Source of the DNA: Curvularia clavata
Taxonomy: Eukaryota
Reading direction: 5' to 3'
Assembly (NCBI GenBank): GCA_023920165.1
Contig: CP089278.1
Coordinates: 1-64,000, forward strand
Length of the DNA stretch: 64,000 nucleotides
Below are positions 3,701 through 48,870 of the stretch, one piece after another. Position 1 is the stretch's first letter. Every line of letters starts with the position of its first letter. A model generated the notes under the pieces. The model saw nothing but the letters and a program-made list of their open reading frames with translations, made no database searches and was not told where the DNA came from. The translations under genes and the position numbers were made by a program.

Positions 3701-5341
3701 CCGCAGCTGCGCCATGCTAAACTGGATCTGCCTATACAACAACGTGTCGCCCACCCAGTCCACCACGCCCTCGGCATTCGTCGTGTACCGGATCTTGAAG
3801 CTAAATGCTCGCAGCCGCAAAATGGCGTCCATAGGCGTCGGCTGCCCATTATAGTCCGTCAGCGCCATGAACCGGTAGCACATGTCCTGCACCAGCTCAA
3901 AATGGGTTGCTGCCGTCGTGCTGGCCGTGTCTTCGCTGTATCCCCCAACTACTAGCTTGTTAATCTGGGTATTGCGCTCTTTGTGTGCTTGGTACAGCAC
4001 CAGCATGCGCGATATGCTGACTATAGCCGACTGCTTGGGGGTATACATAAGCGGATCCAGCCATGCCCTGTCCGTACTGACACCCAACACAGCCATACCA
4101 CTAATCAAGCCGCTCTCATACTCGCTGCTGGCCAGTTTATAATCCAACAGCGCAAGCATGAATGCAAGCACTTGGTCCTGCAACGCCTCGGCGTCTTCTG
4201 CATCCAGCGGCTCGTCTTCACTGTTACTGTCCCCGTGGCTGCCCCCCAGCTCTATGCTCCGCGCTGCGTGAGCTGCCTCCTCTTCTGGGCTGTACCCAGT
4301 CAAATCCTGCATCTCCTCTAAGCACGCCTTTTGCTCTCGCGTCAAGCGGTACGCTAGGCGTCTGCCCTGCACTTCATTGCTGGAATCTGGCGGGACGATG
4401 GGTAGCTTGTACGTCCGCCAGATGTACGCAATAACCTAGAGCCATACAGTGCGATACTTCTTTATCGTTGGCTCTATCTAGCTTGCATTGAACGGCTTTT
4501 CGTTGCTGTTCGTCCTATACTCGCGCCGGTTGATGTGCATCATGGCGGGCATGCCTACTACCTCTGAGTGGGATATCTGCTGTGCCCTCCAAATCACCAT
4601 CTCAGCAGCCTAGCACACATCCTGTAGTGCCCTTTCGTGGTAGCCGGGTGTATGTGCCATGTCTAGTAGCTATAGTCGGTCTAGTCCCTTCAAGTGCTGT
4701 TTCCAGCCGGCCCGGTTGAGCCATGACTAGTATCCCCACCGGCTGCTGTCTTCTTCAATGATGTTGCGGGGGTTTCTGCTTTCTACTATCTGGTCAAGCT
4801 GTAGTACGGACGCAGCTAGTGCATGCCTTAGCTGCGTCTCCTCCTCATCGCTGTCTGCTGGCTCAGCGGGTGCAGCGCCCTGGACTTCAAACAGCCGGCC
4901 CAGCGTGCTGGTGTTCTGGAACTTCTGGCACATGACAGTCGCCCACTTAGACCGCGTACTAGATGGTCGCCCTAGCGTCTTCTGGCGTGGGTAGATCCAG
5001 CTGTGCTGCTTTGAACCATGCTCCTAAATACGCTTCTCACTCCGATTGATATACCCACACTCTCGGCACTTCAAGCCGTCTATGTACACGGGCAAATGGG
5101 GCAGCGGCGCAGCATCTGGGCGTGGAAACATGACCTAGTCTGCACTATCGGCCCAGTTGCGCAGCCATGGCTCCTGGCTGGTGGCTTGTACTATGCTGCG
5201 CCGTGTGTGGGGAGCTAGCTCCTGGTGTTTAGTGTCTAAGTGGGTGCGCAGCTGCGATTTTACGACGCCTTGCTTATGGCTCTTGCATATCGCTATGCAA
5301 TGTGTAGGCAAATATACAAAAATCTCTCTAAATAGATCCAT
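736..5341 (-). pseudogene. Telomere-linked RecQ-family helicase (TLH), RIP-inactivated
   Basis: Collinear ORF fragments: N-terminal C2H2-like region (IAICKSHK...LRTHLDTKH), helicase motifs FRSVQRPAM, decayed Walker A MRTRAGKS, VTPE, IVIDECH, LTATL, QIIVY. Many TAG/TAA stops. Transcribed toward the telomere. The 3' end is approximate. Confidence 0.88.
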
Positions 5342-5906: not shown

Positions 5907-7036
5907 GTAATCCAAAAACCAACTCTTAATTAAAAAAACCTTAAGTAAGTAAAAAAGTAAGTAAAAAGCAAGTCCTTTAACTCCTTTTAGAAACTGTTGT
6001 ATATTAGTAACCCCTTATTCCCCCTCTTACATCCGCCTTAGCTAGTCATTATGTTTCTAGCCTAGAAACTCTTGAGCCACCTCACGAACCATATGTGGAA
6101 GTACTAGCCATAGCGGACTTAGAAGAAAGAACAGCTAAGAATCAAGATAGTGCGTAAGACAATCTCCCTCTAGACAGCAACCCTCATCGTCAATCTAGAT
6201 GCGACAGTACTTAAAGTAGGTAGTTGGCGAAGTCTTAGTACAGCCATTCTGTACGTCTCTAGGCGACCTAACTTAAGATTAATTTTAACTTTTTAAGAGA
6301 GGAAATATAAAGAAGATAGATACTCAAGAAAGTCGATATAGCCATCAAGCTAGAAAGCAGCTAAAAAGAAAATAGCCTTCTTTAGATAGATTTTGTAGAC
6401 ATCTCCAGCTATCTCAGTATCACCACCATTCTCTACTAGATTGATAGCGGGAATGTCTAGAAGTCGGTAGATAGCCTCTTAGAACTAGAGAACTATTAGT
6501 ATACTATTCTTTTTAGTATAGAAGAGCAACTTACTACAGCAGCGTAAATAGCAATATCAAGAGCGTCTGGAGTTGAGCTGTACACCTTATAATAGTAGTC
6601 CCGACACTCTTTATAATTAAACCAGCTTAGAAGGAGATAGCCACAATCAGAAATAGCTATAGTAGAATCGTATCTAAGTAGAAGTTAGTAGCCAGTCTAA
6701 GAGTAGAGAGGTAAAAGATTACAGATAGCACTTAGCCAGACTTTCTTTTTTGCTAGTCGCTTTTTTTTTATTACAGTCGTAGATTAAAGCGAAGCTCTCA
6801 AGTCGAGTTTTAAAAGTAGGTCGGCAGGCTTAATTAATAGGAATTTAGAGAATGTTTTGAAATATATAGAACTATCATATTTAGAATATTAAATTATCCT
6901 TAGAGATTTAATACATACATTACAGACCAGCTTTTCCCATTTCAAACGCTCATTTTGACGTGATATAAGCAGCTAAACGTCTCTTACTTTCTCTCACCTT
7001 AAACGCTTATTTTCACTAAGTCCATCAGAAGGGGCC

Positions 7037-7420
7037 TTTGACTGGTTTGACTGGTTTGACTGGTTTGACTGGTTTGACTGGTTTGACTGGTTTGACTGGT
7101 TTGACTGGTTTGACTGGTTTGACTGGTTTGACTGGTTTGACTGCCTTGACTGGCTTGACTGGTTTGGCTGGTTTAACTGGTTTGACAGGTTTGGCTGGTT
7201 TAACTGGTTTGACAGGTTTGGCTGGTTTGACTGAGTCCAAAAAGGGGCCTTTGACTGACTTTGAACAGCATTGGCTAGTTTGACTGGTTTGACCAAGTCC
7301 AAAAAGGGGCTTTTGACTGACCTTGACTGATTTAACTGGTTTGACTGGTTTGACTGAGTCCAAAAAGATGTCTTTAGCTAACTTTAACTAATTTAACTAG
7401 TTTAACTAAGTCTAAAAGGG
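7037..7420. repeat. 9-bp minisatellite (TTTGACTGG)n with higher-order units
   Basis: Near-perfect 9-mer array from 7037 to about 7230, then units punctuated by GTCCAAAAAGGGGC, increasingly G>A/C>T decayed toward 7420. Confidence 0.92.
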
Positions 7421-8678
7421 TGCCTTTAGCTAGTTTTATAGATTTTAAATGAGCCCTAAATAATACCTTTAGCTTATTTTGATAAGTATTAACTAGTATT
7501 ATATCACACGACGTCAATATAGATATAGAAGGCAGCTCTCAAGACTCTATTAGAGACCCCTCAGGCTAACAGCACTTAAGGAACGTGCAGTATATAAACC
7601 TAATCTAACCTCTTAAAGATTCGTCTTAATACTATCTTTAATATATTTATTTCTATCTACTCAGCCTCTTATATATTGCTGCTACGTAGCAGTAAATAGA
7701 TCGCTGTTTATATTTCTACTTGTTTTGGTTGCTCTGCTGACACAAATCTAGTCGTACGACGTTGCTCTAGTGTACAAAACCCTAATTCTGGGGTTAAGGT
7801 TAACTTGGGGTTAAGCCCTAACCCTACCCTACCCCGGGGCACGGGCCATATCAGCGAACACCAACTTTCTATTCTACTTCATCAAATATCTCGCGCTATA
7901 GCTGTCGCATCGTTATAAAAAGTAGCTCATTAAAATCACACGGGTTTTCTGGATCTATAGTGGAAGTTGCATGAGTTTTAAGCGCTGTTCCGACCTTAAT
8001 CCCAGCGCCTATGTAAATCTACAGGATTAAGGTCTGCAAACTCGCCAAGAAATCTGGGATTAAGGTCGATTTCGACCTTAATCCTGTCGGGGATTGATGA
8101 TAGGGTTTCCAATAGGTATCTCGTTCCGCTGGCTAACAAAGAGATACGATACAAGTGCTATGATAGCTAATGATATTGTGGCAACTATGGGAAAAGTCTG
8201 TTTCAGCGTAGTGAACGATGGCTCAGAAAGAAAATGAGGAGTATCTGATGAGAGTGGAATCGACATATTGAAAGACAGTAAGAACATCAATATCTTTATT
8301 GCTAATTGTACTGTGGATTTTACAGACTATATATATTATACATTTTTTGAAAACCTTTTAGATTGCCCGTTTCCAAAAACGATACGGACCTGGTAGTATC
8401 CCAGCCGGTGAAATTGGAATATATTGCGGATAGCGGATATTCTAGAAGCCGAACACCTGACATAGAAGTCCTTGCCAATATCAAGACTTAGCCAAGCAGA
8501 GTGTACAAGGTGACCAGCGGAAGTTGAGGCAGTAGGGCGGTGGCAAAACTCGGGATCATGTAATATACGTTATCAGACGAAAGGTTTCAATATATTATAT
8601 GCCCGCCTTAAGCAGTAATTACAGCCTTGTTACGGCGTTAGCAGAGATAGCAACGGACCAGCCGTTTCCAGGTGTAGG

Positions 8679-10635: not shown

Positions 10636-11994
10636 CGTTACACCTAAGTCGCAGAGATTCTTAAATATGATTGCATCTTTCTATGCTCTTTAGATCTACT
10701 TCTATCGACTGCAGGTTTTGAATAGCAAAATTACAGCAATCCAAAAAGAGCGCATGAATCTTTCGTGTTGAGCGTTAGAGCTTCAACAACAATATACCCC
10801 TGTTCTATCATGCATAGCAGCACTGCTTACTTATTCGGATACTCTATGAAATTCAAAGTAAGTTAAAGAACTTACAGCGATTCTGTAAGGATATGCAGCC
10901 TTTGCCCAGGTGTGCTCTGAGTTGTTCCGGTCTGTTGCAGCTCTGGTTCGCTTTTTGCGAGACTTTGTATGCTGACATAGCAGATTTTGAACGATTAGCG
11001 GCCTGAAATGTACTGTTACAAGCAACAAGAAGGATTCTCTCCTTGACAAGTGACGAGATGGCTGGAAGCCTACGGACGTCCACGTCAGAAGGTAATGATC
11101 ATCGCGGAGCTAGGTCACGTGATGTGCCATCTCTCCAAGAGCAACCATCCGAGGGATAGTATAACGCCTTAGGAAGGCAGCTATCCCTAACATTATAACT
11201 ATCCCTAGGAAAATTAGAACAGATAGAATAGTAGGACTAGAGATAATAAGGATATGTTAAGAGTCTAGCTCGAGTGTGTAAGGGGGCTGCGCTCTGTGGA
11301 ACAATCGCGAGGTATGCAAGAGGTTGTGTTCGATAGAGAGCTAAGTAATACTACTTGCATGGTATTTGTTTACTTATCGGAGGAAGGTTACGCCGAGCGT
11401 CTGAGCGCGTCTTCTGAGCATCGCTCGGGTTGTCTATAGATTCTGGGTGCTCCGTAGCACCCGGATTCTATAGACAACCCGAGGTCCCATCGAGGAGCTA
11501 TCCAAAGGGCGTTCAGCCGGTTATAGAGTAGAAGTAATATTAGACTTCTAGTATTAAGCTTCTTATTAGTTAGTTTTCGTAGATAGAGAGATATGTTACA
11601 TGAGGGTTGGCGCTGATACTTCTCTATCTCGATCCAGGTTAGGGCGAATAGGAATATGATCGGCTCCGTGAGGTTTGTATGGCGATGCAGTGGAGTGGGC
11701 ATGCTTATAGAATAGAAGATAACAGGTTGACAAATACCTAATCTATATTGCTATAGACTAACAAGAATCAGTCTTTCTATAGTAAAATGACTAGTGAGAA
11801 AGTACAATTTGAGTTGACCATGTAATGCGCTGCGCCCGTGAAAGTGAAAGCACGTGATTGTGTCACGTGTCTACGTTACACCACTTAGTTAGAACCTTAC
11901 TTGTACGAAGAACGTAGAAGCAAAGGTATAGCGAGAGAGACGTCGTAAGATAACTTTGCTCTCTTTATCTTCCTTCTTCTGTAGTATAGGCTAA

Positions 11995-12203
11995 TGTCAG
12001 GACCTGGTCCAAATTGGGACATGTTGGTCCAATTCCCTCCTTCTTCACGCTAGTTAGTTAGCTAGGGCTTACCTAAGGCTATAAAGCCTCCACGATCGCT
12101 AGAGGTGCTTGATAGCGATTCGTCTCGTGAATATATGGCTGTTAAAGCATAGTTCTCTCTCATCTATCTCGTGCTGTACCTTCACGCCACTAACAGTCTA
12201 ACA
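11995..12203 (+). repeat. 5' LTR
   Basis: TGTCAGGACC...GTCTAACA; TATAAA at 12080; four transition differences from the 3' LTR seen by eye. Confidence 0.95.
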
Positions 12204-12235
12204 TTCGAATCGCTCTCCTCAAGTACACCTACGAG

Positions 12236-13470
12236 ATGTCAGAGAGAGCCATGCCGAACCCAGGTAGTCGCCAAACTCGGAGCCGCCCAAGGTCAACTCG
12301 AAATACGGTAGTAGGGGACTTATAGCCTACTCTAACTAGAGACTTAATCTAGCTATCTTCAAGTGAACTATCCGAGCCTGCCGTCACGGAGGCAGATCAG
12401 GCCGAACTGGCACAGAGAAGCCCAATTTAGGGCAGCCCAGCTCGACTTGAACCACCTCAGACTACTATTGCTTAATAGCTAGACGAACTGCGCGCTTGGA
12501 GGCAACGAGCGCTTGACGAGCAAGAACTGAAACGTCTCTAGGAAATTAAGCGTCGGTTTGACCAAGGTGATATGACAGCACTGACAGAGGACCTATATGA
12601 ACTATACCGTGCGGTGGGGATACAACTAGAACTAAACGTGGGAGCTCCATGACTAGAAAAACCAACACAGTTCACAAGCCGCGATCGTGCCGAGTACAAT
12701 CGCTGGGAACGCGAATGTGAGGCAACGTTTAGGGGAAGCCCTAAAACGTTCCAAATAGAGGCAGTTAAGATCGATTTTGGGTTTAGGTATATCACTGACC
12801 CCCTACGCTCTATATGGGACGCCTATTATCACGACTACTGTAGAAAAGATACGAATTGGACACCCACGTGGCTAGACCTGAAGACTGTAATGGTGGATTC
12901 ACTGGGACCACCAGAATAGCGGAAGCTTGAAGCCCACCGAGCTCTCAAACACATCAGACAGGACTGGTCTCAGGACCCAAACGACCTGTTGGCCAAATTG
13001 GACACACTTTGGTCCGAATTGGGCAATTCCTACTCGGAAGAGCAGAGAGTGAGGGACTTTATGGGCGCTTTGACAATGACAATATAGAAAGAGTTGCTTT
13101 TACTCGAACTAGGTTAAAGAAGTATAATCTTAGACCTAAACGCGCGAGCGCGACTTATCTGGGATAGAACGAAAAGAGAGAAGCCTAGCAACGCTAGAAC
13201 AACGCAGAATAAGTAAGCTAGGAGCGGCACACCACCAAAGAACACAAGAGGGTACGAAAAAACTCTGAAAAAATAAAGACGGAATCCTGCGGATACAAAA
13301 GGTTCATACGCGGCAAACAAGGTTCGAGGACGCGACGCAGAGGGCAAAATTGTCTGTTATAACTGCGGGGAACCCGGACACATTAGTAGGAACTGTAGTA
13401 AGCACAAATAAAGCCAAGCGGCACCTGAGGAACCCAAACTGGAAAAAGGTAAGGGGCGGAGAATCTAGTA
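12236..13470 (+). pseudogene. gag: Gag with CCHC zinc knuckle
   Basis: ATG at 12236 is in frame with CYNCGEPGHISRNC at 13355; multiple TAG/TAA stops. Confidence 0.8.
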
Positions 13471-13515
13471 GCCCTACTCTCCGCCTATATTGCAAGGCTA
13501 GAGCTAGAAGAGGAC

Positions 13516-16500
13516 TTGAAGACACTTCGCGAAGCAATGTTTAGCAAACCTAGCCTACTATTGACCATAACGGTGCAAATTGGCCAAGATCCACTCGAAG
13601 CGCTGATAGATGGAGGGTCTCAACTAAATCTACTCTCAATCTACCAAGCCAAGGATCACGATTTAATAATAACTCCTATACCGAACTTAGTGGCAGAAGC
13701 CTTAAGCGGCGCGGAGTTTGAGATTTATGGTACTACAGAGGTGACTATGAAAGTTATAGATATAAGAGGGAGGACTAAAGTCTAGAATATACTTTTTGTG
13801 GTGATAGAAATGAAGTATTACCTAGTATGCTTAGGTATGCCCTGGGTCGACTTCTATAAGCCCAAAATAAGCCTCCGGTCGCGTTGAGTGCTATTTAGGG
13901 GCGTGAAATATGTAGATAGGGCTTTATATGAGAAAATCGCGATAGAAAGCGCCGAAGAGTTTGAGAAAACACTCCGAACGCCCACGACGGACGTTTACGC
14001 GCTTAAAGTGTCCACTGTGATGGGTTGGGACCTAAGCGACGAGGAAGAGGACTGGGAGGGGTTGGAGAAGCCTAAGAACGCCCAGGTTGGCCCTGATTAA
14101 GCCAAGTTGCCTTAGTTGCCACTATAGTACGAGGACTTTGCGGATTTGGCCTCGGAAGAGGATGCCAAGTGCCTTGCTGAGCATGGCCTGCACGATTTGG
14201 TGATAACCTTGAAAGAAGGCACCACGCCACCACATCAGCCGCTATATGGGCTCTCGAAGAGCGAGTTAGCGCTACTCCGGGATTACTTGCGTGAGTATCT
14301 CGCGAGAGGGTGGATTAGACATTCGAAGTCGCCAGCAGGCGCACTAATACTTTTCGCGAAGAAGAAAGACGGCACGATGAGGTTATGTGTGGACTATAGA
14401 GGTCTAAACAACATAACGCTCAAAAACTGTTACCTTTTACCCTTGATTATGGAGTCCTTGGATAGATTGGCTGAGGCAAAATTCTATACTAAGCTAGACG
14501 TCCGAGAAGCATATCATAGGGTGAGGATTAAGGAGGGAGACGAGTGGAAGATAGCCTTCCGCACTAGATACGGCCATTTCGAGTATACTGTGATGCCTTT
14601 TGGCCTTATAAACGCTCCTGTACAATTTCAGGCGTACATATACTATATCCTTGCAGGATTGGTAGATGTGAGTTGTATTGTGTATTTGGACGATATCCTG
14701 GTGTTCTCTAATATAGAAGAGGAGCACGAGAGACACGTGCGCGAAGTCTTAAACAGATTGCGCGAAGCCAAGCTGTATTTGAAGACTTCGAAGTGTGAAT
14801 GGCACACCCAACACACTGAGTTCCTTGGCTATACAGTTAGCCCCGAGGGTATAAGTATCGACCCAGATCGGGCCAAAACGGCCCAAGAATGGCCAGAACC
14901 GCGTACAGTGCGCGATGTCCGCGTGTTTCTAGGCTTCATGAACTACTATCGTCGATTCATTGCTAACTTCTCCAGAATCGCACTGCCTTTAACTGAGTTA
15001 CTGAAAAAGGAGCCGAACGCCGCCAAAGGGGGCAAAGCTCAGCGAAAAGAGGAAAGCGTACTGCTAATTCTAGACGAAAACGCCAAGAGCGCGTTTAAGA
15101 CGCTAAAAAACTCCTTTATGGCAGTACCTATCCTAACCCACTTTAATCCAGACAATCAGACTAGAGTACAGGTCGATGCGTCGGGAGGAGCGATTGCTGG
15201 CATCCTAAGCTAGTACGTGCCCAAAGAGGCTTGCTGGAGACCCGTAGACTTCTACTCGCGCAAATTAATCGCCGCGGAGTACAACTATGACACGCATGAC
15301 TAAGAGCTACTAGCTATCGTCGCTAGTCTCCAACACTGGCGAAGATATCTTGATGGGATACACTTTGATCTAATTACTGACTATCGAAACCTGAAGTGGT
15401 TCATGGAAACCAAAACACTGAATCACCGCCAGGTACGGTCTTACTTAGCCCTATCAGGTTTTGATTTCACAATTGTACACTAACCTAGGAAAACAAACCC
15501 CGCCGACAGCCTATCGCGCAGACCCGACTACATAAAAGCCGCCCAAGAGCCAAAGCAGAAGAATAATAGCGCATATGTGCCATCGCTACGCCATCTGCTC
15601 AAATTCAATGCCGAAGGGACTGCTATAGCTGCAGCTACCACCACACGATCACAAGGACGGCAGAATACAGTAGCGAAGCAACATGAAGACCAGAGGCATG
15701 CAGCATTGGCTCAAGAGGCCGACTCAGAGACGGACGAATACACTTCGGACTCATGTAGCTCAGAAGAAGACGACGTGGCCAAACCAAGTCCACAAAGGCT
15801 CAAACAGGGCCACTCTGGCCCAACCGTGCCCAAGACGGCACAGGAAAAAGTAGCAGCATTAAAACAAGGTCACGACGACCCGCTTTCTGGACATTTTGGC
15901 GCAAGACGCACATTAGAGAAACTAACGCGCCACTACAAGTGGGCTGGCATGAGGAAAGACGTGGAAGACTACTGCAAATCATGCCTTATCTGTCAAAAAT
16001 CTACCCCGAAACGGCACCTGCCATACGGGCCCCTTGCACCATTACCACCACCTAATAGAGCCTGGGAGGAAGTAACAATGGACTTTATAACTGAATTGCC
16101 ACCAAGCAAACTGCAAGGCGTAGTATACGACGCAATCCTCGTGATAGTCGACAGACTGACCAAAATGGCCCATTACGTGCCAGCACGGTCCAATTGGGAC
16201 GGAGTAGACCTAGCTCAGGCATGGTTGCGCGAAGTAATCCGTCTCCATGGCGTACCACGCCGAATCATATCAGATAGAGGCCCTTTAATGAACTCCACCC
16301 ATTGGAAGACCTTTCTTCACTACCTTAACTCGAAACGTGTACTTACTTCGGCATACCACCCACAAACAGATGGCCAGACTGAACGCTAAAATTAGACTCT
16401 AGAACAGTACCTCCGCTGCTACTGTTCCCTAGAGCAGGACGACTGGGCATTATGGATCTCAGTAGGGGAATACGCGTACAATGACAGTGTATATTCGACT

Positions 16501-17170
16501 ACCAAGGTCACCCCCTTCCAAGCATGCAACGGCATACACCCAAGAGGCGCAGAATGGCCCAAAGACGCCCAAACTGGGGGCGAAAACCCCCTAGCGGCAA
16601 GTACTGCCTCAAGAATAATCGAAATATAACAAGAGTGCAAGAACAATATTCTAAAAGCGCAAGAGTACCAAAAACGGCACGTAGATAAGAAAAGACAACC
16701 TATTCCTTTTAAGGTAGGGGATAAAGTACTGCTATCTAATAAGCATATTAAATCCCTGCGACTAAAGAAGAAGATCGACTGGAAATACGTTGGCCCAGGC
16801 ACAATAACTGAGCAAATCGGCCTATCAGCATTTAAAGTAGATATGCCTGGTCTAAAAAACGTACACCCAGTGTTCCATGCATCCTTACTAGAGCAGTATC
16901 ACCCCCTAGGTGATATACCATATCCTGAAGTCCCAACACAACATGAACTAGGCGAGATAGGCGACGATGTCTACCTCGTGGACAAAATAGTGGGATATAG
17001 GAAGAACAAGGACGATTAGTGGGAATACTTAGTGAAATGGACTGGATACCCCGACTCTGAAAATATATGGGAGCTAGCCGCTAATGTTACTCAGAAAACG
17101 CTTTAAGAGTTCTGGAACAAATCAAATTAGGTCCCTCGACGCAGACGCGGGCCAAAACGGGCCAAATAGG
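13516..17170 (+). pseudogene. pol: Pol polyprotein (PR, RT, RNase H, integrase, chromodomain), -1 frame relative to gag
   Basis: LEALIDGGSQ (protease); LCVDYRGLN, MPFGL, YLDDIL (RT); VDAS (RNase H); H..GHFG..CLIC and MDFI/ISDRG/HPQTDGQTER (integrase); YLVKWTGYPDSENIWE (chromodomain); premature stops. Confidence 0.93.
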
Positions 17171-17457
17171 GCCAATAGGAGCTAAATTAGTATATGTACC
17201 TTCACCTACTTTTTTCCCCAAAGGGTTTTATAGGTGTTTAACGGCATAAGCTGATTAGGGCAACCTGGCCCAAATTGGTCCATGTTGAACTGACATTGCA
17301 CAACAAAAACCAAGGAATGGAAAAGTAAAGAAAAGAGAATTTCAATTATCACCTCTATCCTAATGCCCTGGGTATCTCATATGAAAGGGAAGAAAACCAC
17401 TATAGCCTATACTGACCTAATTTGGGCCAAAACGGACAAAACTAGACCCAACCACCC

Positions 17458-18523
17458 TTAATCACCGGCAACTGCGGCCTCGTACTCCTTGTTAAGCCTT
17501 GCCTTGGCTTTTTCCAAGTTCTTGATGTCATTGGTGATCTTCCTCTTGGCTTGACCCTTAGCCCCCTCCTTCTCAGACATTTTTTGCAAAATCTCTTCAT
17601 TAATGTCATTGATGCGCTTCTGAAGCTTATCAGTGACATCCTCGGCAACCTTGACCTAAAGAACCAAGTTAGTCCAAATTGGGGCAATTTGGCGTAAATA
17701 GGGGGGAAAAGGATCACAAATCTCCTTCTTGCGTCTACCAGAGCCATACTTAGACTTCTTGACCCTTGCCTCGACTAAAGTTTCCACCTCGATCTCATGA
17801 GCCTTCCTCTTAACCTCTTCATCCTTCTTAGAGCGGCTAAGGGCAGAAGTCTTCACACCAGAGCGGGGATCATCTTCCTCCTCGATGGCACCAGAGGAAA
17901 GAGACAGATGAGTAGCATAAGGCTTAAACCTACATAAATTAGTCCAATTTGGGCTAGATTTAGGAAAATTGGATCACTTACTTCTTAAGTGACTCAATAA
18001 TAGGCTTACTAAATATACTAAGCCTAGTAACAGCCACCTCGTACATTTCCCTGCGCTCAGCACGAACTTCAGCCTCATTAGCACCCTCGGGGATATCTTT
18101 GTCAATAGCATAGAAGGCATCCTCAACCTTCCCAATAAGCTGGCCAAGTCTCACCCAGTCGGGGGAGAACTTATCAGGAGGAGGCACCTAACCACTCATT
18201 TAGCTCCAAATTAGACCAAATCAGAGCAAAACAGGGCAACTTACCGCAAAACAGACACGGTTGATATAAGAGCAGCGAAGACACTTCATCACCTGCCTAG
18301 GCATACCGCCAGACTCCAGTTCAACCTTGTAGCCAGACCAAGCCTCAGCTACCTCAGAATTATCGATGTCCAACATAACGCAACCCGCTCTGCCAAAAGT
18401 AACGGGCTCATTATCCCTAAAGGCGTTCAGACAGCACACACAAGCGTAGTAAGACCTCTGGCCCTTGCGTACGAACAGGTTTGACACCGTACTGCGGTTA
18501 ACGGATCCAAGTACGTTCGTCAT
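17458..18523 (-). CDS. Spliced antisense accessory gene of the retrotransposon; about 296 aa, six-Cys Zn2Cys6-like N-terminus and charged helical C-terminus
   Basis: Exons 18523-18245, 18187-17982, 17929-17722, 17655-17458. Introns 1 and 2 have GTAAG donors, CTAA branch sites and TAG acceptors and join in frame. Intron 3 has a GACTAAC branch site and TAG acceptor, but its donor reads ATTTGT (probably mutated). No other stops. Confidence 0.75.
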
Positions 18524-19116
18524 GGTTCAAGTGGGTCTTGAAGGCCCCAATTTAGGGGTGTTTGGGACGAATCGGTCGAATCTGTCGCGAAATAGATCGT
18601 ATAGGAGGAAACAGCCTAAAAAGAACAGTCAGCAGAAAACTCCAAGTCCAGGGGAAGAACCTCAGAAAAAGGCAACAAAACCAAGGTCGACTGCAAACTA
18701 GCCCAAATTGGGCCAAACTGTTGCAAACAGACCGTGGGTGGAAGGTGTCGGGCCCAAACTGAGAAGACCCACAAAATAGGAGTCTACTTACCAAAGTGGG
18801 GTTAGTGGACTGTAGGGTGTACTGGGCTTAGTCAAAAACTGGCTATTGTATCCCTAGATCCGCACTAAATTAGCGCGTCACGTGACTCTTGGCGCTACCC
18901 AGGAGTACCCCGATGGGCCGGGTTGGCCCAAAGTGGGGCAGTCGGCTAGGCAGCAGCGCAAAACTCCGCTATTATGACGTCATAGCCCTGGGGCGGTAAG
19001 TAAGTAAAATACACCCTCCAACCCACACGGCGGCATCACCCAGTAATCGCTCAAACTAGGCGGCAAGCATGATAAGTTGCGCAGCTGGGACAGCTGCACC
19101 CTAAGAAGGGAGGTAT

Positions 19117-19325
19117 TGTCAGGACCTGGTCCAAATTGGGACATGTTAGTCCAATTCCCTCCTTCTTCACGCTAGTTAGTCAGCTAGGGCTTACCTAAGG
19201 CTATAAAGCCTCCACGATCGCTAGAGGTGCTCGATAGCGATTCGTCTCGTGAATACATGGCTGTTAAAGCATAGTTCTCTCTCATCTATCTCGTGCTGTA
19301 CCTTCACGCCACTAACAGTCTAACA
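19117..19325 (+). repeat. 3' LTR
   Basis: Direct repeat of 11995-12203, followed by TSD GCTAA. Confidence 0.95.
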
Positions 19326-20186
19326 GCTAATGCAAACTCGTCCGAAGGCCTCTTCGCCCATAACAGACCATAACGAGAGTAAATAATGAAATATATCTAT
19401 CCTTATATCCTTATTGCTTCTAGTCCTGTCCTCTAGCTAAGCTGTTGGTATCTCAGATGTCGCTGGTATCTGGAGATGTCTGGTCTTGGCGAGATGCCAA
19501 TCACGTGATCTTCGTCCCGCGATGATCATCCTACCCGTGGGGATCTCTAGTGGTTTCCCAACCGTTCATCGTCATATCTAGGGAGAGGATCCTTCGTACT
19601 GTTACTTGCAACAAGATAGTATATACTAGATAGTAACTTAGGCAAGTTTAATACTATATTAGACTTATACTTAGAACTTAAGTTAAAAAAGAGCTTAATG
19701 CCTAATGCTATAACGTAAAGTATTACCGACCCAGACATACCACCGAGCCGGACACTTTTTCTTAGCATTGCGAACTTCATGTACAAAACATTATGTAACA
19801 CAAACACTACCCCTTATCCGCTCTAGATCGGGCCCTTTCCGTGGTGTCCTCTCGTCTAGGTCACAAAAGCTTTTTTGAGTACAATACTCCGATGTGTTCT
19901 ACCATCGCAATTAAGCTGCTCTTCTCTCCTGTCTTGGTTGCTCGCCCTGGCCGTTCCTGCCATACGCTAGTCCGGTATGGTGGGTTAGCGAAGCAGTAAA
20001 CGTTCGATGATGACATTAGGCCCCCTCACAGCTCCTTCGCGCTGCGCCATCGCGCGCAGAAATCACGCAGGTCTAATTCTTCCTTGTCCGCGCTGCAAGA
20101 CTTAAAATACGTCAAGCTTAACTTTCTTCTGCTTCTCGCAGACCTCTCTTTCCCAACGTCCTCTGTAGTGCTTGGATTAGATCAAC

Positions 20187-24410: not shown

Positions 24411-24999
24411 ACTGAATGTGGATGCTATACAGCAACTTACAATGAAACGTGATAACCGCCTCTTTTGTTATTGAGAAACAAAGAAATGATGTGCGGGTGT
24501 CCTGGAGAAAAGAGGGGCCGTGCCCTGAGCTCCAGGATTCCCCGCTCCGGTAAGCTTGGTGGAGATGCGGGGAAAGAAATGAGTGTTTAGGCTGAACTTT
24601 CTGATAAGCTATTCGACAAGGTTTTGACCCACTCGTAGTTCCGAGCCATCCGCCAACACTAAACTAAGTAATAAAAATGCGCGATATCGTCTTGATGTTG
24701 GCGTTTTAGTGTCACGATACGGGCTCATAGGCGGAAAGGCCAGGCGCGAATATAGATCTTATCACTACGGAGTGATAGACGGACTCTTAGTACAGGTAGT
24801 GTAGAGTAGTAGACAGTACATAGCTTAAAGAGCTACACCAGCGTTGTTGAGGTAGTTTTACAGAATCCAGGTGCTCAGGCCCGCACCTGGCCTCTACGCT
24901 CAGCCAATTTGGTGACTGCGCGCCAGCTGTCCTAGCCAGCGCCGTAACTGGTATCGCGATCTATCTGAAGCTAACTAAAGCTATAGATGAAATAAAGTA

Positions 25000-25775
25000 G
25001 GCGAACTAATAGCGAGCGTGCTTACTATAAGGATCCTATCTCAATCGCGGCCTAGTATAAGCTAGTAGAAGATATCCGCCAGACGTATAGCGTTCTAGAT
25101 TGAGATATGTACAACTTTGACAAGACGAGATTCGCGATAGCCGTTGCTATAATGTTAAAGGTAGTTATAAGCTCTAAAAGAGTTAGTTAGGTAGTTATGA
25201 TACAGCTATGTTATTGTAAGTAGGTCATAGCAATCAAGTGCGTTAATGCGTCTAGCTGTCAGAAGCTCAGCTCTATACTATGAGGTTGTTGGTTCGATGT
25301 TAGCATAGTACGAGATGGACAAGAGAAAACTATACGTAAACAGTCGTATATTCACGAGACGAATCACTAGAGATCCTTTCTATCGATTACTAAAGGTTTA
25401 TAGTCTAAGCGCAACTCTTTATAACTAATACAGTAAGAACAAGGCCAGTTGGGACTGAATTGACCCAAATTGGGCCGGATCCTGACATATGCCACTAGGC
25501 TACTGCAACCAAAAGGTACGAGTAACAGCATTCTGCTGATCTCGGGCATAGAACAGTATATATACAGATGACCTCTGCTCTAGACTACCCCACACGTCAG
25601 CCTTGCCCAAGGGTCTGACATTAGCTAGTCTTTACTACTATTCGTAACTCTATCTAGTAAAGTTTACTAGGCTGGCTAGTATCACAATCTCCCACCTAAC
25701 TCGACTGTCGGTGTCTTAGACAACGGCTAAACAATAGACGAGCTTAGTGCAAAGTGGGTGAAGTACTTCAACTGT
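25000..25775 (+). mobile_element. Fot1/pogo-like DDE transposase relic, interrupted
   Basis: Decayed MYNFDKTRF (cf. YNFDETGF) near 25110 and LPPNSTVGV.DNG.T.DEL..KWVKYFN near 25690; split by a solo LTR. Confidence 0.7.
25279..25487 (-). mobile_element. Solo LTR related to the Gypsy LTRs
   Basis: 209 bp; reverse complement begins TGTCAGGATCCGGCCCAATTTGGG; flanks TATAC/TATGC fit a TSD with one RIP change. Confidence 0.82.
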
Positions 25776-39579: not shown

Positions 39580-39786
39580 TGTTAAACTGCCAGCTCAATG
39601 GTGGCACAGCACGAGATGAACGAGAAAAAACTTTGCATTAACAGTCGTACATTCACGAGACGAATCGCTAGAGATCCTTCCTAGCGATTACTGAGTCTTT
39701 ATAGTCTAAGTTCTACCCTTAATGACTGACGTGGTGAAAGCTAAGGTAGACAGGGCTGAATTAGTCCAAAATGGGCCAGTTCCTGA
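39580..39786 (-). mobile_element. Solo LTR related to the Gypsy LTRs, inside a MITE-like relic
   Basis: Shares CACAGCACGAGAT, TTCACGAGACGAATCGCT, TTTATAG and CCAAAATGGGCC with the family. Confidence 0.8.
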
Positions 39787-40180
39787 ACAGATTCTACTGT
39801 TACACTTGCTATAGCTAGCTTTTAAACTGTACTCCCTTAAAAGTTGTTGTTTAACAAGTTCAATACTTTGTTCTTCTATTCCAGATCGGATTAATCCTCT
39901 TTGCTACTAATCAAGTCTCTATAGCTATTTCCAGTAGAATTACTCTGCAATCGCACGGCTTACCATTGACCTGCTGACTCGCCCTAACCCGGATTGAGTA
40001 CTAGAGAAGTATAGCCCAACCCCGTGTAACACAGAGGTCAGTTCTCACGGATAAAGCAATAGTATATTATGATTAAGAATTCTATAGTTAACTGTTGTTT
40101 TTCCTGACACCCTTGGCTCTATGTAGCTTATATTAATAGTATCTCAAGCTCAGGGTAATCTCTTGTACGAATGTCCTCCA

Positions 40181-45191: not shown

Positions 45192-45400
45192 TGTTAGGCT
45201 GTCAGTTGCATGTGGGCACAGCACAAGATGGGTAAGAGGAAACTGTGCGTAAACAGTCATATCTCAACGAGACGAATCGCTAGAGAGTCTGTCTCGCAAT
45301 TACTGAGCCTTTATAGTCTAGGTTCTACCCATGATGACTAATATGGTAAGAATTAAGGTAAGCAGGACTGGATTGGTCCAAACTGGGCCAGATCCTGACA
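45192..45400 (-). mobile_element. Solo LTR related to the Gypsy LTRs
   Basis: 209 bp, TGTTAGGCTG...GATCCTGACA; no matching TSD. Confidence 0.85.
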
Positions 45401-46442
45401 ATTATGGGCTACAATCTATTAGAAGACTGTAGAAAGCCAAAAGTTATTGTATTGCTTGGGAAGTAGGAATGATCTGGTCTAGTGGATATTCTCATAGTAG
45501 TTGGCACGTGATGTTGACAATGAGCATTGTTATAAGATACAATGTTCATTACGAACTCGGACCGATTCATTGCGGGCCTACAAATGTGGCACCATAATGA
45601 CTATCATTTCTTTATGCCGCGCCTATCCGTATGTGGAGATTACAAGTATGTGCAGGCATTCATAGATACGAAGATGCGGGGATGCGGGGATGCAGGGGTC
45701 TAACGCAGTTCGGGGTGTGGGGACGAGCTCTCGGCCGATCAGTAAACCCGGATATATCAGAACAAGCAGGCTCGCCCACTAAAACTTGTTGTCCATACTT
45801 TAAAAAATCATCACCACGGCGACTAAATCTTTTATGAAAATCAGATAGAATAAAAGCACATCGTCTAGATTTACTATATCCAAGTATACTTTAAGCAAAA
45901 TACTACTCTGCAAGACTGTAGCGGAGTGGATATTTCTAAGCGGCTTTTACACTATCGGCGTTGGGCAATTTTAAATCTGACCTTACCAATCGGCCAAAAG
46001 ACGAGCTATGGCCTCAGACGTTTCTACTGTGTATATCTCAGAACTCCCGGCGTGCGGCAAATCGATCGACTCACTTTCATCCTTCACAAGAACAAACATG
46101 CTAATGACTAGTCAGTACCAAGAATGGAAGAAATTGTTCTAGACTGGCCGATGCCTGACATAGCCTACAAACCCTAGTCTTCAATGCTGTATGATACCAG
46201 TTCGCTAAGCCTGATCTTCTCCCATTTTCAACTGCCGAGTCCGCGCGTGATAGCCTTCGGGACGTGGAGGGAAAGCCTGTGACAAACCGATGGTATAGGA
46301 TTGGTATATTTAAAAGTCTCCTGCATTTTGTTTTGATGATTATTATCACCATGTAGGTCATGCTCCTCAATGCCAGAAATCTATCCTATCCATTAAGTCA
46401 GCAACACAATCGTCCTCAATTAAGAAGTACCTGAGATTAGCT

Positions 46443-48487: not shown

Positions 48488-48700
48488 TATTAGACTATTA
48501 GTTCGATGTTCACACAGCACGAGATGGACGAGAAAATACTATGCGTGAACAGTCGTATATTCACGAAAGAAGCCGCTAGAAATGCTTTCTAGAGATAACT
48601 GAAGCTTTATAGTCTAAGTGTAACTTTCAATAATGAATTAATAGGGTAAGAACAAGGCCAATCGGGGATGAATTGCAACAATTTGGGCCGGATTCTGACA
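48488..48700 (-). mobile_element. Solo LTR related to the Gypsy LTRs
   Basis: TATTAGACTATTAG (RIP form of TGTTAGACTGTTAG)...GGATTCTGACA. Confidence 0.82.
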
Positions 48701-48870
48701 AACAGCGCTTACGTACGCTCGTCAGTCTCTGTATTTCGCGACACAGCAGGGATACTGGGTTACGAGAGCATTTTATAGTATACAGAGGTGCAATAAAATG
48801 CAGCGCGGAAATGGAAGCCTAGCCGGTCTGCTCTGTGATAGAGCTAGGTGAGATGAAAGCTACCTGGTGC

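Follow-up and report, generated by a model that had tools for sequence, protein, structure and literature searches.

Why does a fungal retrotransposon carry the same short motif, once per helical turn, above all in its non-coding parts, and what might read it? The question is raised by an element copy in Curvularia clavata, within a window of 64 kb (the whole stretch of DNA analysed here). A sequence-only reading of this window had described palindromic sites, often in runs with a 10-bp period, in the long terminal repeats (LTRs), in the introns of an antisense gene and on both of its flanks, and had taken them to be targets of the element's own dimeric zinc protein.

The element and its antisense gene

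The copy is a Ty3/gypsy chromovirus, and its main parts are as follows.

11995-19325, plus strand: the whole chromovirus copy, 7331 bp, delimited by sequence, LTR pair and reverse transcriptase (RT) matches
11995-12203, plus strand: 5' LTR, with a phased array at 12002-12041, CCAAATTGG at 12009 and CCAAT at 12029
12236-17166, plus strand: gag-pol, with a chromodomain at its end; the intact homologue P0014 can be aligned as far as 17166
17458-18523, minus strand: antisense accessory gene, placed from open reading frames, homologues and the intron positions of a relative, L015
18523-18245, 18187-17982, 17929-17722 and 17655-17458, minus strand: accessory exons 1 to 4
18188-18244, minus strand: intron 1, 57 nt, 86% covered by arrays
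17930-17981, minus strand: intron 2, 52 nt, 98% covered
17656-17721, minus strand: intron 3, 66 nt, 86% covered; its donor dinucleotide is AT in the window copy
18524-19116, minus strand: region upstream of the accessory ATG, up to the polypurine tract, with arrays at 18546-18591, 18686-18736 and 18905-18946
19117-19325, plus strand: 3' LTR, with an array at 19124-19163

The copy is flanked by a 5-bp target-site duplication (GCTAA at 11990-11994 and 19326-19330), and its LTRs are 98% identical. Its RT has 100% identity over 361 aa to a named C. clavata protein and 96% identity to the intact 1603-aa polyprotein P0014, on which the chromodomain family PF00385 is recorded. Its lineage belongs to the self-priming chromoviruses of Tf1-like type that occur in Dothideomycete-type fungi. 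The copy in the window is dead: 41 stops fall in the pol frame (frame 2) over 12206-17100, about a dozen in-frame stops were counted inside pol, and the donor of intron 3 is broken; the TA/AT value of the copy is 1.21. No further copy of pol or of the accessory gene was found in the 64-kb window. A nested insertion with inverted-repeat borders was considered and dropped, as the inverted pairs are the palindromic motif itself.

In the accessory protein an N-terminal six-Cys domain is joined by a basic linker to a tail that is helical and rich in K/E. The six cysteines are invariant in all eight aligned homologues, and they are the sole basis for the putative 'zinc' label. The phase-0 position of intron 3 was deduced from L015. 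An exhaustive homologue search of 1.84 billion representatives returned nine matches, two of them spurious (repeat proteins); a word-based search found five proteins with the accessory alignment and none with exon 1. Among the homologues found only one is named, a hypothetical protein from Alternaria gaisen. No Pfam family reached the gathering score for the four exons or the eight homologues, and the weak sub-threshold matches, for exons 3 and 4 only, were of coiled-coil type. AlphaFold models of the protein were weak (pLDDT 63.9 and 68.8). A fold search with these low-confidence models gave a best Z of 2.3, and Foldseek no match at E <= 0.001; the best match in a PDB profile search had E = 8.6, and in the protein atlas the matches, at 0.91, were all unnamed clusters from bacteria. 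Protein-context search found no relative in metagenome contigs, and viral contigs yielded nothing with the queries P0012, P0004 and P0020. For the exon-1-only gene models P0006, P0008, P0009 and P0012, back-translation of the read-through tail can yield similar motifs in intron 1 of the same model; given codon degeneracy, this may serve as a lead only. An E-box palindrome and a CRE-like palindrome are also present in the accessory upstream region.

Phased arrays of a 10-bp unit

Set against shuffled background the motif is strongly enriched, with nine sites of CCAAATTGG in the window where 0.43 were expected and none of 100 shuffles reaching nine. The seven exact sites reported earlier (12009, 12993, 17270, 17674, 17944 on the minus strand, 18703 and 19131) all lie where they had been placed, and two more were found at 24904 and 25465; the five variants (12422, 18206, 18547, 18791 and 18928) are each a one-mismatch copy. 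The 10-bp runs are likewise borne out. Sites fall in register at 17152/62/72/82, 17417/27/37, 17664/74/84/94, 17934/44/54/64 and 18693/703/713/723, TRF assigns period 10 to 17148-17187 and 18206-18239, and 4-mer self-matches over 17100-19116 peak at lags of 10, 20 and 30 (z = 7.7, 5.4 and 6.0). A template-free lag-10 signal was rejected as a specific test, since distant chromoviruses reach up to z 5.6 and low-complexity purine and T tracts in these control elements score equally high.

What has to be given up is the idea of independent palindromes. The repeat unit is a co-oriented direct 10-mer, C-C-A-A-a-t-T-G-G-n, of which the palindrome is merely the best form, and the motif of L015 is not palindromic. 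An array repeats a 9-bp core, CCA-N-A-W-T-GG, three to five times in the same orientation and at a spacing of exactly one turn of the DNA. Scanning with a 30-mer against tandem CCAAATTGGG (at least 19/30 matches) gave 468 positions in the window, compared with a mean of 10.4 and a maximum of 35 in shuffles. These positions form 26 phased clusters, with 20 in the element, four in related solo LTRs and two elsewhere. The original observation is therefore confirmed and stronger than first described, and the proposal of a family-specific motif, one per helical turn, agrees with the 24 of 26 clusters that lie in the element or its solo LTRs.

Every stretch free of coding constraint is packed with arrays, namely the start of U3, the post-pol spacer, the 3' flank, the introns and the accessory upstream region. 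In the window element they cover 0.86-0.98 of each antisense intron and 0.00-0.02 of each exon, 0.47 of the sequence from the pol stop to the accessory stop, 0.24 of the accessory upstream region and 0.07 of gag-pol; outside the element the coverage is 0.00. The concentration in non-coding parts that had been claimed thus holds for the introns (86-98%), both gene flanks and the U3 edge, but it is not complete, as gag-pol carries nine weaker phased clusters. Within pol there are seven clusters where codon shuffling gives 0.34, and none of 200 shuffles reached seven. Segmental duplication of exon plus intron was dropped as a source of the similar introns, because the exon pairs are dissimilar (z <= 2.3) and the intron pairs are alike through the motif alone. 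Arrays beyond those already listed are given here.

12396-12449, 12982-13030, 13560-13592, 14069-14117 and 14854-14901: weaker clusters 1 to 5, in gag-pol
15004-15052, 15788-15845, 16165-16198 and 16542-16584: weaker clusters 6 to 9, in gag-pol
17137-17195, plus strand: array GGGCCAAAAC/GGGCCAAATA/GGGCCAATAG/GAGCTAAATTAG, overlapping the final pol codons
17247-17299, plus strand: array that includes ACCTGGyCCAAATTGGkmCATGTT, a near copy (24 nt) of the start of the LTR, 88% identical to 19124-19147 (repeat family D3)
17395-17454, plus strand: array directly 3' of the accessory stop codon
25438-25495, minus strand: U3-edge array of the solo LTR at 25307-25487, core CCAATTTGG in LTR sense
39744-39789, minus strand: U3-edge array of a related solo LTR, core CCATTTTGG
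45357-45411, minus strand: U3-edge array of the solo LTR at 45192-45402, core CCAGTTTGG
48655-48712, minus strand: U3-edge array of a related solo LTR, core CCAAATTGT

As had been noted before, the four related solo LTRs keep the motif, with CCAnnTTG at the same LTR position in all four (alignment A1). Across six LTRs, whose alignment columns are on average 72% identical, the core occupies one and the same place in U3.

A related element with a changed motif

L015 is an intact element. It has ORFs for gag and for pol (1282 aa), and its accessory gene has the same three intron positions. It is 69% identical to the window element in RT and 33% in the accessory domain, which evolves much faster than RT. 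The layout of its arrays is that of the window element, but the motif is CCAGAATGG. Coverage is 0.92-1.00 in introns, 0.00-0.04 in exons, 0.47 from the pol stop to the accessory stop, 0.31 in the accessory upstream region and 0.08 in gag-pol; the LTR, with a single CACAATGG near its start, falls below the array threshold (coverage 0.00). At 21/30 matches or more, each element prefers its own variant, the window element with 136 positions for CCAAATTGGG and 33 for CCAGAATGGC, L015 with 22 and 128 respectively. When a template of shared positions only is used, core position 4 is A30:G11 in the window element vs A6:G17 in L015 (Fisher p = 5e-4) and core position 6 is T24:A11 vs T5:A22 (Fisher p = 1e-4), units within an array being non-independent. 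The core common to both is CCA.A.TGG, and both have the 10-bp period with harmonics at 20 and 30. The core has changed in concert between the two elements (CCAAATTGG versus CCAGAATGG); as a cis feature the arrays are conserved, but with divergence between lineages.

Elsewhere the accessory homologue was absent, at E <= 1e-3, from all 16 other chromovirus contigs. Arrays without the accessory gene were sought in 15 distant, gene-less chromoviruses (94 kb; 35-44% RT identity), which lack such arrays; the template scan at 21 or more matches gave two clusters with variant A and none with variant B. Among viral contigs, exon 1 of L015 and the PPT/LTR-junction pattern matched L015 only, and a 16-sequence polyprotein alignment matched L015 and one distant element, L018. 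Covariation of motif and gene was thus found to the extent that L015 combines a homologous gene and the same architecture with a variant motif. It comprises two elements only and is inseparable from linkage by descent, which explains the co-occurrence of gene and arrays equally well because the two elements share ancestry and the controls are phylogenetically distant.

What may read the arrays

Our best guess, to which we give a probability of about 0.4, is that the element's own Cys-rich, coiled-coil-like protein reads the arrays in a manner similar to VANC, the anti-silencing protein of VANDAL transposons. We infer that a sequence-specific protein would bind them on double-stranded DNA, cooperatively and from one face, and the accessory protein, with its six-Cys domain, basic linker and helical tail, would be the likeliest reader. 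By binding, it may tag the entire element, promoters included, to be activated or to be shielded from silencing, as VANC proteins do for the VANDAL transposons of plants. Several observations count against this. The sense co-orientation of nearly all arrays is no requirement of a reader of double-stranded DNA, the LTR of L015 is below the array threshold, and the accessory protein has no Pfam family, PDB or fold match. The earlier argument that a palindrome implies a dimer is also weakened, since the L015 core CCAGAATGG is non-palindromic, with a G within the W block. A bolder version, which we regard as unlikely, is a private and fast-evolving pairing of protein and site. The Cys-rich protein would polymerise on phased sites that coat the element, its own introns included; specificity would switch jointly on both sides (CCAAATTGG to CCAGAATGG); and the coat would shield the element from heterochromatin, DNA methylation or RIP duplicate recognition, as a convergent counterpart of VANC.

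The rivals rank below our best guess, and the one that survives best, improbable as we take it to be, moves the recognition to nucleic acid of another kind. The sense-strand RNA or the minus-strand cDNA template would be read by a multimerising element protein, with the 10-nt period as the footprint of a protomer; candidates are the CCHC knuckle present in Gag, or the accessory protein as a Rev- or CERV-like export or packaging factor. This would suit the strong sense co-orientation, with 13 clusters on the sense strand vs 2 in the window element and 17 vs 5 in L015 (at 21 or more matches, 5 vs 0 and 10 vs 0), which extends even to the introns of the antisense gene, and all eight CCANAWTGG sites of L015 are on the plus strand. 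The arrays, about 20 over the 7.3-kb element, all lie inside the transcribed unit, the 3' U3 included, and CERV of Cer1, an LTR-element accessory protein described as required for genomic RNA export (PMC10309623), offers a precedent. However, both elements show a period of exactly 10 (harmonics 20 and 30), which is the turn of B-DNA, whereas single-stranded RNA predicts no particular period, and the window core is palindromic. Co-orientation would also be expected from spread by template switching or slippage, and an A-rich sense strand (367 A vs 227 T in the non-exon 3' part) yields it too. There were no Rfam matches, and so no known RNA family.

A reading that fares about as well as that one, and is just as improbable, is that the arrays are sites for a host transcription factor (e.g. 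the CCAAT-binding complex or a MADS-like dimer) and act as enhancers of the LTR and internal antisense promoters. The CCAAT pentamer is the consensus of the CCAAT box (HAP/NF-Y), and CC(A/T)6GG that of the MADS CArG box. The U3 array, which is in the first ~45 bp of U3, lies about 60-70 bp upstream of a TATA-like box (CTATAAAG, at ~12079-12086 in the 5' LTR) with a second CCAAT 20 bp beyond, CCAAT is present on one strand in 12 of 20 window arrays, and the E-box and CRE-like palindromes would fit such a promoter. Neither consensus accounts for the motif, however. CCAAT occurs in only 4 of 17 L015 arrays, is missing from the core CCAGAATGG and is not part of the shared core CCA.A.TGG; the window core is CC-W5-GG, and CC(A/T)6GG is found four times in the window element and not once in L015. 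Arrays are also found in introns, the 3' flank and coding DNA, and a concerted change of core would probably not be expected for a conserved host factor.

DNA shape alone is more doubtful again. Here AAATT-type tracts, phased between G/C blocks, would cause curvature or rotational nucleosome positioning and so favourable chromatin for promoters and introns. A 10-bp alternation of A/T and G/C is a classical positioning and bending pattern, which the arrays show, and the W/S-only template SSWWWWWSSS separates the element from its surroundings (24.7 vs 1.15 positions per kb at 25/30 matches or more; 36 positions vs 0 at 27/30 or more). In the arrays found by this template, on the other hand, S is specifically C on one side of the unit and G on the opposite side: position 2 has C:G = 41:10 and position 9 has G:C = 46:5, where chance matches outside the element give 39:20 and 29:25. 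The top enriched k-mers are specific words (GCCCAAA 37-fold, AATTTGG 26-fold), arrays of 30-50 bp are far shorter than a nucleosome, and L015 puts a G inside the W block. The bending or nucleosome signal, which had been named at the outset as the alternative, is therefore excluded in part only, as the W/S alternation is real but the base preference goes beyond it.

The least probable reading is that of neutral by-products, in which 10-bp, microsatellite-like repeats arise by slippage, are spread and homogenised by template switching of the reverse transcriptase and persist where coding allows; the arrays are tandem, co-oriented and alike across sites (families D1-D5), homogenisation yields concerted change within an element, and C-to-T or G-to-A changes account for many of the variants seen in the window copy (e.g. 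CTAAATTAG). Against this reading, several positions vary between the units of one array, so that the arrays are not recent expansions; the layout with three filled introns is the same despite 33% accessory-domain identity, a distance at which introns free of constraint should no longer be recognisable; gag-pol contains arrays contrary to the codon-shuffle expectation; and the core keeps its U3 position across the six LTRs.

Comparison with known systems

The VANC anti-silencing proteins target motif arrays in the VANDAL (Mutator-like) transposons of Arabidopsis, and binding and loss of DNA methylation have been demonstrated in the account of Hosaka et al., 2017 (PMC5735166). The VANC21 motifs described there lie in non-coding regions and introns, in one orientation and at high density, as tandem repeats. 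The likeness to the present arrays is considerable in these respects. A short motif of 8-9 bp is enriched only in its own family, as is the case here for 24 of 26 clusters; most of its copies fall outside coding sequence or in introns of genes that the element itself carries (here 0.86-0.98 of introns against 0.00-0.02 of exons); it forms dense tandem repeats in one orientation (here with period 10, 13 vs 2 in the window element and 17 vs 5 in L015); the motifs of related families differ at two positions (here core positions 4 and 6, in two elements only); and the accessory protein evolves fast. In contrast, the present carrier is a fungal Ty3/gypsy LTR retrotransposon, where VANDAL is a DNA transposon of plants. 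No relation of the accessory protein to a named family could be detected, its gene runs antisense, the units are spaced strictly 10 bp apart, and weaker arrays are also present in coding DNA. The element does not belong to VANC/VANDAL proper, as its carrier is a chromovirus and neither the four exons nor the eight homologues reach a Pfam gathering score.

Response elements for transactivators in U3 and an internal promoter are known from foamy-virus Tas, and from HTLV in the Tax-responsive 21-bp repeats. There too the element encodes a factor whose repeated target sites are located in U3 and ahead of the accessory gene itself, as proposed here for the reader, but those sites are few and confined to promoters, whereas these are also found in introns, the 3' flank and coding DNA, one helical turn apart. 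Bacterial parC/ParR partition sites consist of co-oriented 10-11-bp iterons that are bound cooperatively on one face of the DNA. These are likewise direct repeats at the helical period, suited to cooperative binding from one face, but they belong to another domain of life and form a single locus, compared with about 20 dispersed arrays here, and we know of no relation between ParR and the accessory protein.

In its layout the element resembles the Boty type, which is also a chromodomain Ty3/gypsy element with an antisense gene (brtn) between pol and the 3' LTR (here 17458-18523). The source study cited for brtn is reportedly that of Zhao et al. in Virology in 2011. As an additional antisense gene of Boty-like elements, brtn is described from Botrytis and Sclerotinia (PMC8365987; PMC7264820), and motif arrays are not mentioned in the available portions of those accounts.

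Implications

In plants and fungi alike, LTR retrotransposons can carry an extra antisense gene downstream of pol and ahead of the 3' LTR, and the function of such genes is given as unknown in the account available (PMC7264820). No description of arrays such as these was found in the open-access literature, whether by exact motif or by topic. Here the antisense extra gene is accompanied by a conspicuous, conserved and lineage-divergent candidate cis-partner, which turns 'function unknown' into a testable question, namely whether the protein binds the array of its own element and not that of a sister element. The layout, together with the changed motif in an intact relative, suggests an undescribed system of private recognition, and introns that lie antisense in a retroelement can carry the element's own signals. 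If the protein does bind its own element's array and not the sister's, it would be the first example of VANC-like self-recognition beyond the DNA transposons of plants, and fungal retrotransposons may have in it a means of coping with silencing. If the private pairing of protein and site is true as well, the antisense 'extra genes' of LTR retrotransposons would thereby gain a function for the first time.

Structure and state of the host element

The first 12 kb or so of the window have a RIP-like composition (TA/AT 1.25-1.59). The start of the window is a chromosome end, where 15 copies of the telomere repeat CCCTAA (61-151) precede 2.4 copies of a 66-bp unit (164-321). At 7037-7448 a separate array lies within a decayed repeat and consists of a 9-bp unit, TTTGACTGG, repeated 22 times, and then repeats of 61-62 bp, each holding GAGTCCAAAAAGGGGCC, a CC-W5-GG word that resembles the motif of the chromovirus copy discussed below. 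That copy and four related solo LTRs are placed as follows:

11995-19325, plus strand, LTR retrotransposon; 209-bp LTRs, 98% identical; 5-bp target-site duplication GCTAA
25307-25487, minus strand, solo LTR
39603-39710, minus strand, solo LTR
45192-45402, minus strand, solo LTR
48514-48623, minus strand, solo LTR

The element encodes a Gag with a CCHC knuckle and a Pol with protease, reverse transcriptase (RT), RNase H, integrase and chromodomain, and a polypurine tract immediately precedes the 3' LTR. This copy is dead, with about a dozen in-frame stops in the pol reading frame and a TA/AT ratio of 1.21, typical of RIP-type decay. A 361-aa open RT stretch is 100% identical to a Curvularia clavata protein named by NCBI; an intact polyprotein of 1603 aa from that species matches it at 96% identity, and therefore intact copies of the family exist. 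Just 3' of the 5' LTR, positions 12206-12214 (CGAATCGCT) form a candidate self-primer, complementary to a conserved LTR stretch at 12114-12122 (AGCGATTCG) that lies about 30 bp downstream of a TATA-like box.

Arrays in the element and the window

The sequence-only reading had proposed that palindromic motifs in 10-bp-phased arrays concentrate in the non-coding parts of this element. The exact motif CCAAATTGG is indeed enriched (nine in the window against 0.43 expected, seven of them inside the element), the variants listed for it are all one-mismatch copies, and the runs it named resolve, when read in register, into 10-bp tandem units. The unit that repeats, on the other hand, is the direct 10-mer C-C-A-A-a-t-T-G-G-n, and the palindrome is its most regular form. 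When every 30-mer of the window was compared with a tandem CCAAATTGGG template, 468 positions reached the cut of 19 or more matches, where composition-matched shuffles gave a mean of 10.4. They form 26 clusters, of which 20 lie in the element, four in the solo LTRs, at their U3 edges, and two elsewhere, both only at threshold score. A plain lag-10 statistic was rejected as a specific test, since purine-rich coding tracts and T-rich LTR tracts lift distant chromoviruses to similar z-scores; template scans were therefore relied on.

Concentration in non-coding DNA holds for the antisense accessory gene, whose introns are almost filled while its exons are almost empty (see the table below), but nine weaker clusters fall in gag and pol, and the arrays are thus not confined to non-coding DNA. 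Seven clusters lie in pol, where 0.34 are expected under codon shuffling and none of 200 shuffles reaches seven. With an orientation-informative template, nearly all arrays in the window are co-oriented with gag-pol (13 clusters vs 2), and those inside the introns of the antisense gene likewise point along gag-pol. The solo LTRs, 69-78% identical to the LTR of the element, represent related but distinct families, each with its own variant of the core, always at the same place in U3; no full-length partners of these four families were found in the window.

An intact relative with the same architecture

An IMG/VR scan with a related polyprotein recovered L015, an intact relative among viral contigs; scans of metagenomes for relatives found none. 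The 7117-bp contig has one LTR, its ends (1-123 and 6995-7117) are identical over 123 bases, and it is either a collapsed assembly of a two-LTR element or a one-LTR circle. It carries a gag ORF and a 1282-aa pol ORF, and shares with the window element the polypurine tract/LTR junction and a Tf1-like self-primer logic. The same complementarity is present in L015 between ATCGAACAG and CTGTTCGAT, at about 1055-1065 and 1169-1177, which suggests that both elements use Tf1-like self-priming rather than a tRNA primer. Its antisense gene is homologous to that of the window element, with introns at the same three positions. Identity between the two elements is 69% in RT and only 33% in the six-cysteine domain of the accessory protein, which evolves much faster than RT.

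The non-coding part of L015 is periodic at the lags also seen in the window element, 10, 20 and 30 (z = 7.3, 4.5 and 5.8 in L015), and its commonest words are CAGAATGG and GCCAGAAT. Coverage by feature is almost identical in the two elements.

Array coverage (fraction of each feature) in the window element and in L015
Feature; window element; L015
Accessory-gene introns; 0.86, 0.98, 0.86; 1.00, 0.98, 0.92
Accessory-gene exons; 0.00-0.02; 0.00-0.04
Spacer, pol to accessory stop; 0.47; 0.47
Region upstream of accessory ATG; 0.24; 0.31
LTRs; 0.22; array threshold not reached
gag-pol; 0.07; 0.08
Remaining window; 0.00; not applicable

The unit itself differs, being CCAAATTGGG in the window element and CCAGAATGGC in L015, where the core, CCAGAATGG, is non-palindromic. 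At a cut of at least 21 of 30 matches, the window element yields 136 positions for its own template vs 33 for that of L015, and L015 yields 128 for its own vs 22 for that of the window element. Within the shared-letter template CCA.A.TGG., the first variable position is A30:G11 in the window element vs A6:G17 in L015, and the second T24:A11 vs T5:A22; units within one array are not independent, so p-values for these positions are flattering, and the differences at both are seen across many separate arrays. Several of the weaker pol arrays occupy homologous protein positions (14854-14901, 16165-16198 and 16542-16584 in the window; 3779-3831, 5130-5163 and 5506-5551 in L015), for example in the RT stretch ...DP(D/E)R.KT.Q(E/D)WP..., and their origin may lie in inheritance or in a bias set by the amino-acid sequence, not in independent selection.

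The antisense accessory gene

Between pol and the 3' LTR, the minus strand carries the four-exon accessory gene. Its product combines a cysteine-rich N-terminal domain, basic clusters and a helical K/E-rich tail, and two structure models reach low to middling confidence. Exon 1 (93 aa) has only nine matches among 1.84 billion representatives, two of which are repeat proteins that we regard as spurious, and there is a single named homologue, a 309-aa hypothetical protein from Alternaria gaisen. Invariant across all eight sequences are six cysteines along with two glycines, one asparagine and one arginine, and the domain was not recognised in Pfam, PDB-sequence, fold and protein-atlas searches. 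By homology with L015, intron 3 should start in phase 0 at 17720-17721, which reads AT rather than GT, and the sole nearby GT (17717) would shift the frame. Because of this AT and the stops in gag-pol, the gene is probably non-functional in the window copy. Upstream, an E-box palindrome (GTCACGTGAC, 18877-18886) and a CRE-like palindrome (TGACGTCA, 18975-18982) would fit an internal promoter served by ordinary host factors in addition to the arrays.

Fifteen other chromovirus contigs (35-44% RT identity; 94 kb) hold two variant-A (window-type) and no variant-B (L015-type) clusters at 21 or more matches, and no homologue of the accessory gene was found in 16 such contigs at E <= 1e-3. In several, the two ends share a T-rich LTR-like sequence, which makes these contigs complete elements that leave no space for the gene; all of the controls are phylogenetically distant, and phylogeny therefore confounds the lack of arrays as well as that of the gene. 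Core and six-cysteine domain both differ between the window element and L015, as co-variation of motif and accessory protein would predict, but in this comparison of only two elements linkage by descent would explain the pattern equally well.

Possible readers of the arrays

With 33% identity between the products of two genes, their introns are expected to be saturated with change. The phased architecture is nevertheless kept in each of the three introns and in the flanks and spacer, with a core that has shifted in concert, and because of this combination the comparison argues for arrays under constraint and a reader of shiftable specificity. An element-encoded reader fits better than a conserved host factor, and the accessory protein would be the natural candidate. 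A period of exactly 10 bp speaks for reading along one face of double-stranded DNA. To recognition of such DNA by the element's own protein, as the sequence-only reading had proposed, we give a tentative probability of about 0.4.

Recognition on the sense strand, in genomic RNA or its cDNA, would account for the near-perfect co-orientation of the arrays, which a DNA reader does not need, but the exact period favours double-stranded DNA, and we consider it unlikely. A host factor is rather unlikely as reader: CCAAT, found in 12 of the 20 arrays of the window element but in only 4 of the 17 in L015, is not the shared core, nor is the CArG form CC(A/T)6GG, which occurs four times in the window element and not at all in L015, and the core shifted in concert between the two elements. 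A template of W and S classes alone separates the element from its surroundings (24.7 vs 1.15 positions per kb; 36 vs 0 positions at the strictest cut), as recognition of DNA shape alone would predict. However, the S positions of these matches are C-specific on one side and G-specific on the other, in which chance matches outside differ; the motif is therefore base-specific and also carries a bendable W/S rhythm, and shape alone appears improbable. Neutral spread by template switching, with which co-orientation also fits, is more improbable still, given an architecture that persists in introns where 33% protein identity implies saturation.

Recognition by the element's own protein would share its logic, that of an element protein with its own motif arrays, with VANC and the VANDAL transposons of Arabidopsis, whose arrays are described in excerpts of one report as tandem repeats of one orientation in non-coding regions and introns (PMC5735166). 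Carrier and protein both differ here, and the element is not a member of that family. A search of a collection of open-access literature, by exact motif and by topic, turned up no account of a fungal LTR retrotransposon with element-wide, helically phased motif arrays, nor of such arrays within an antisense accessory gene's introns. Antisense extra genes are already known from fungal chromoviruses, with brtn of Boty as the case given in excerpts of two reports (PMC8365987, PMC7264820), and the novelty is the arrays, not the antisense gene itself.
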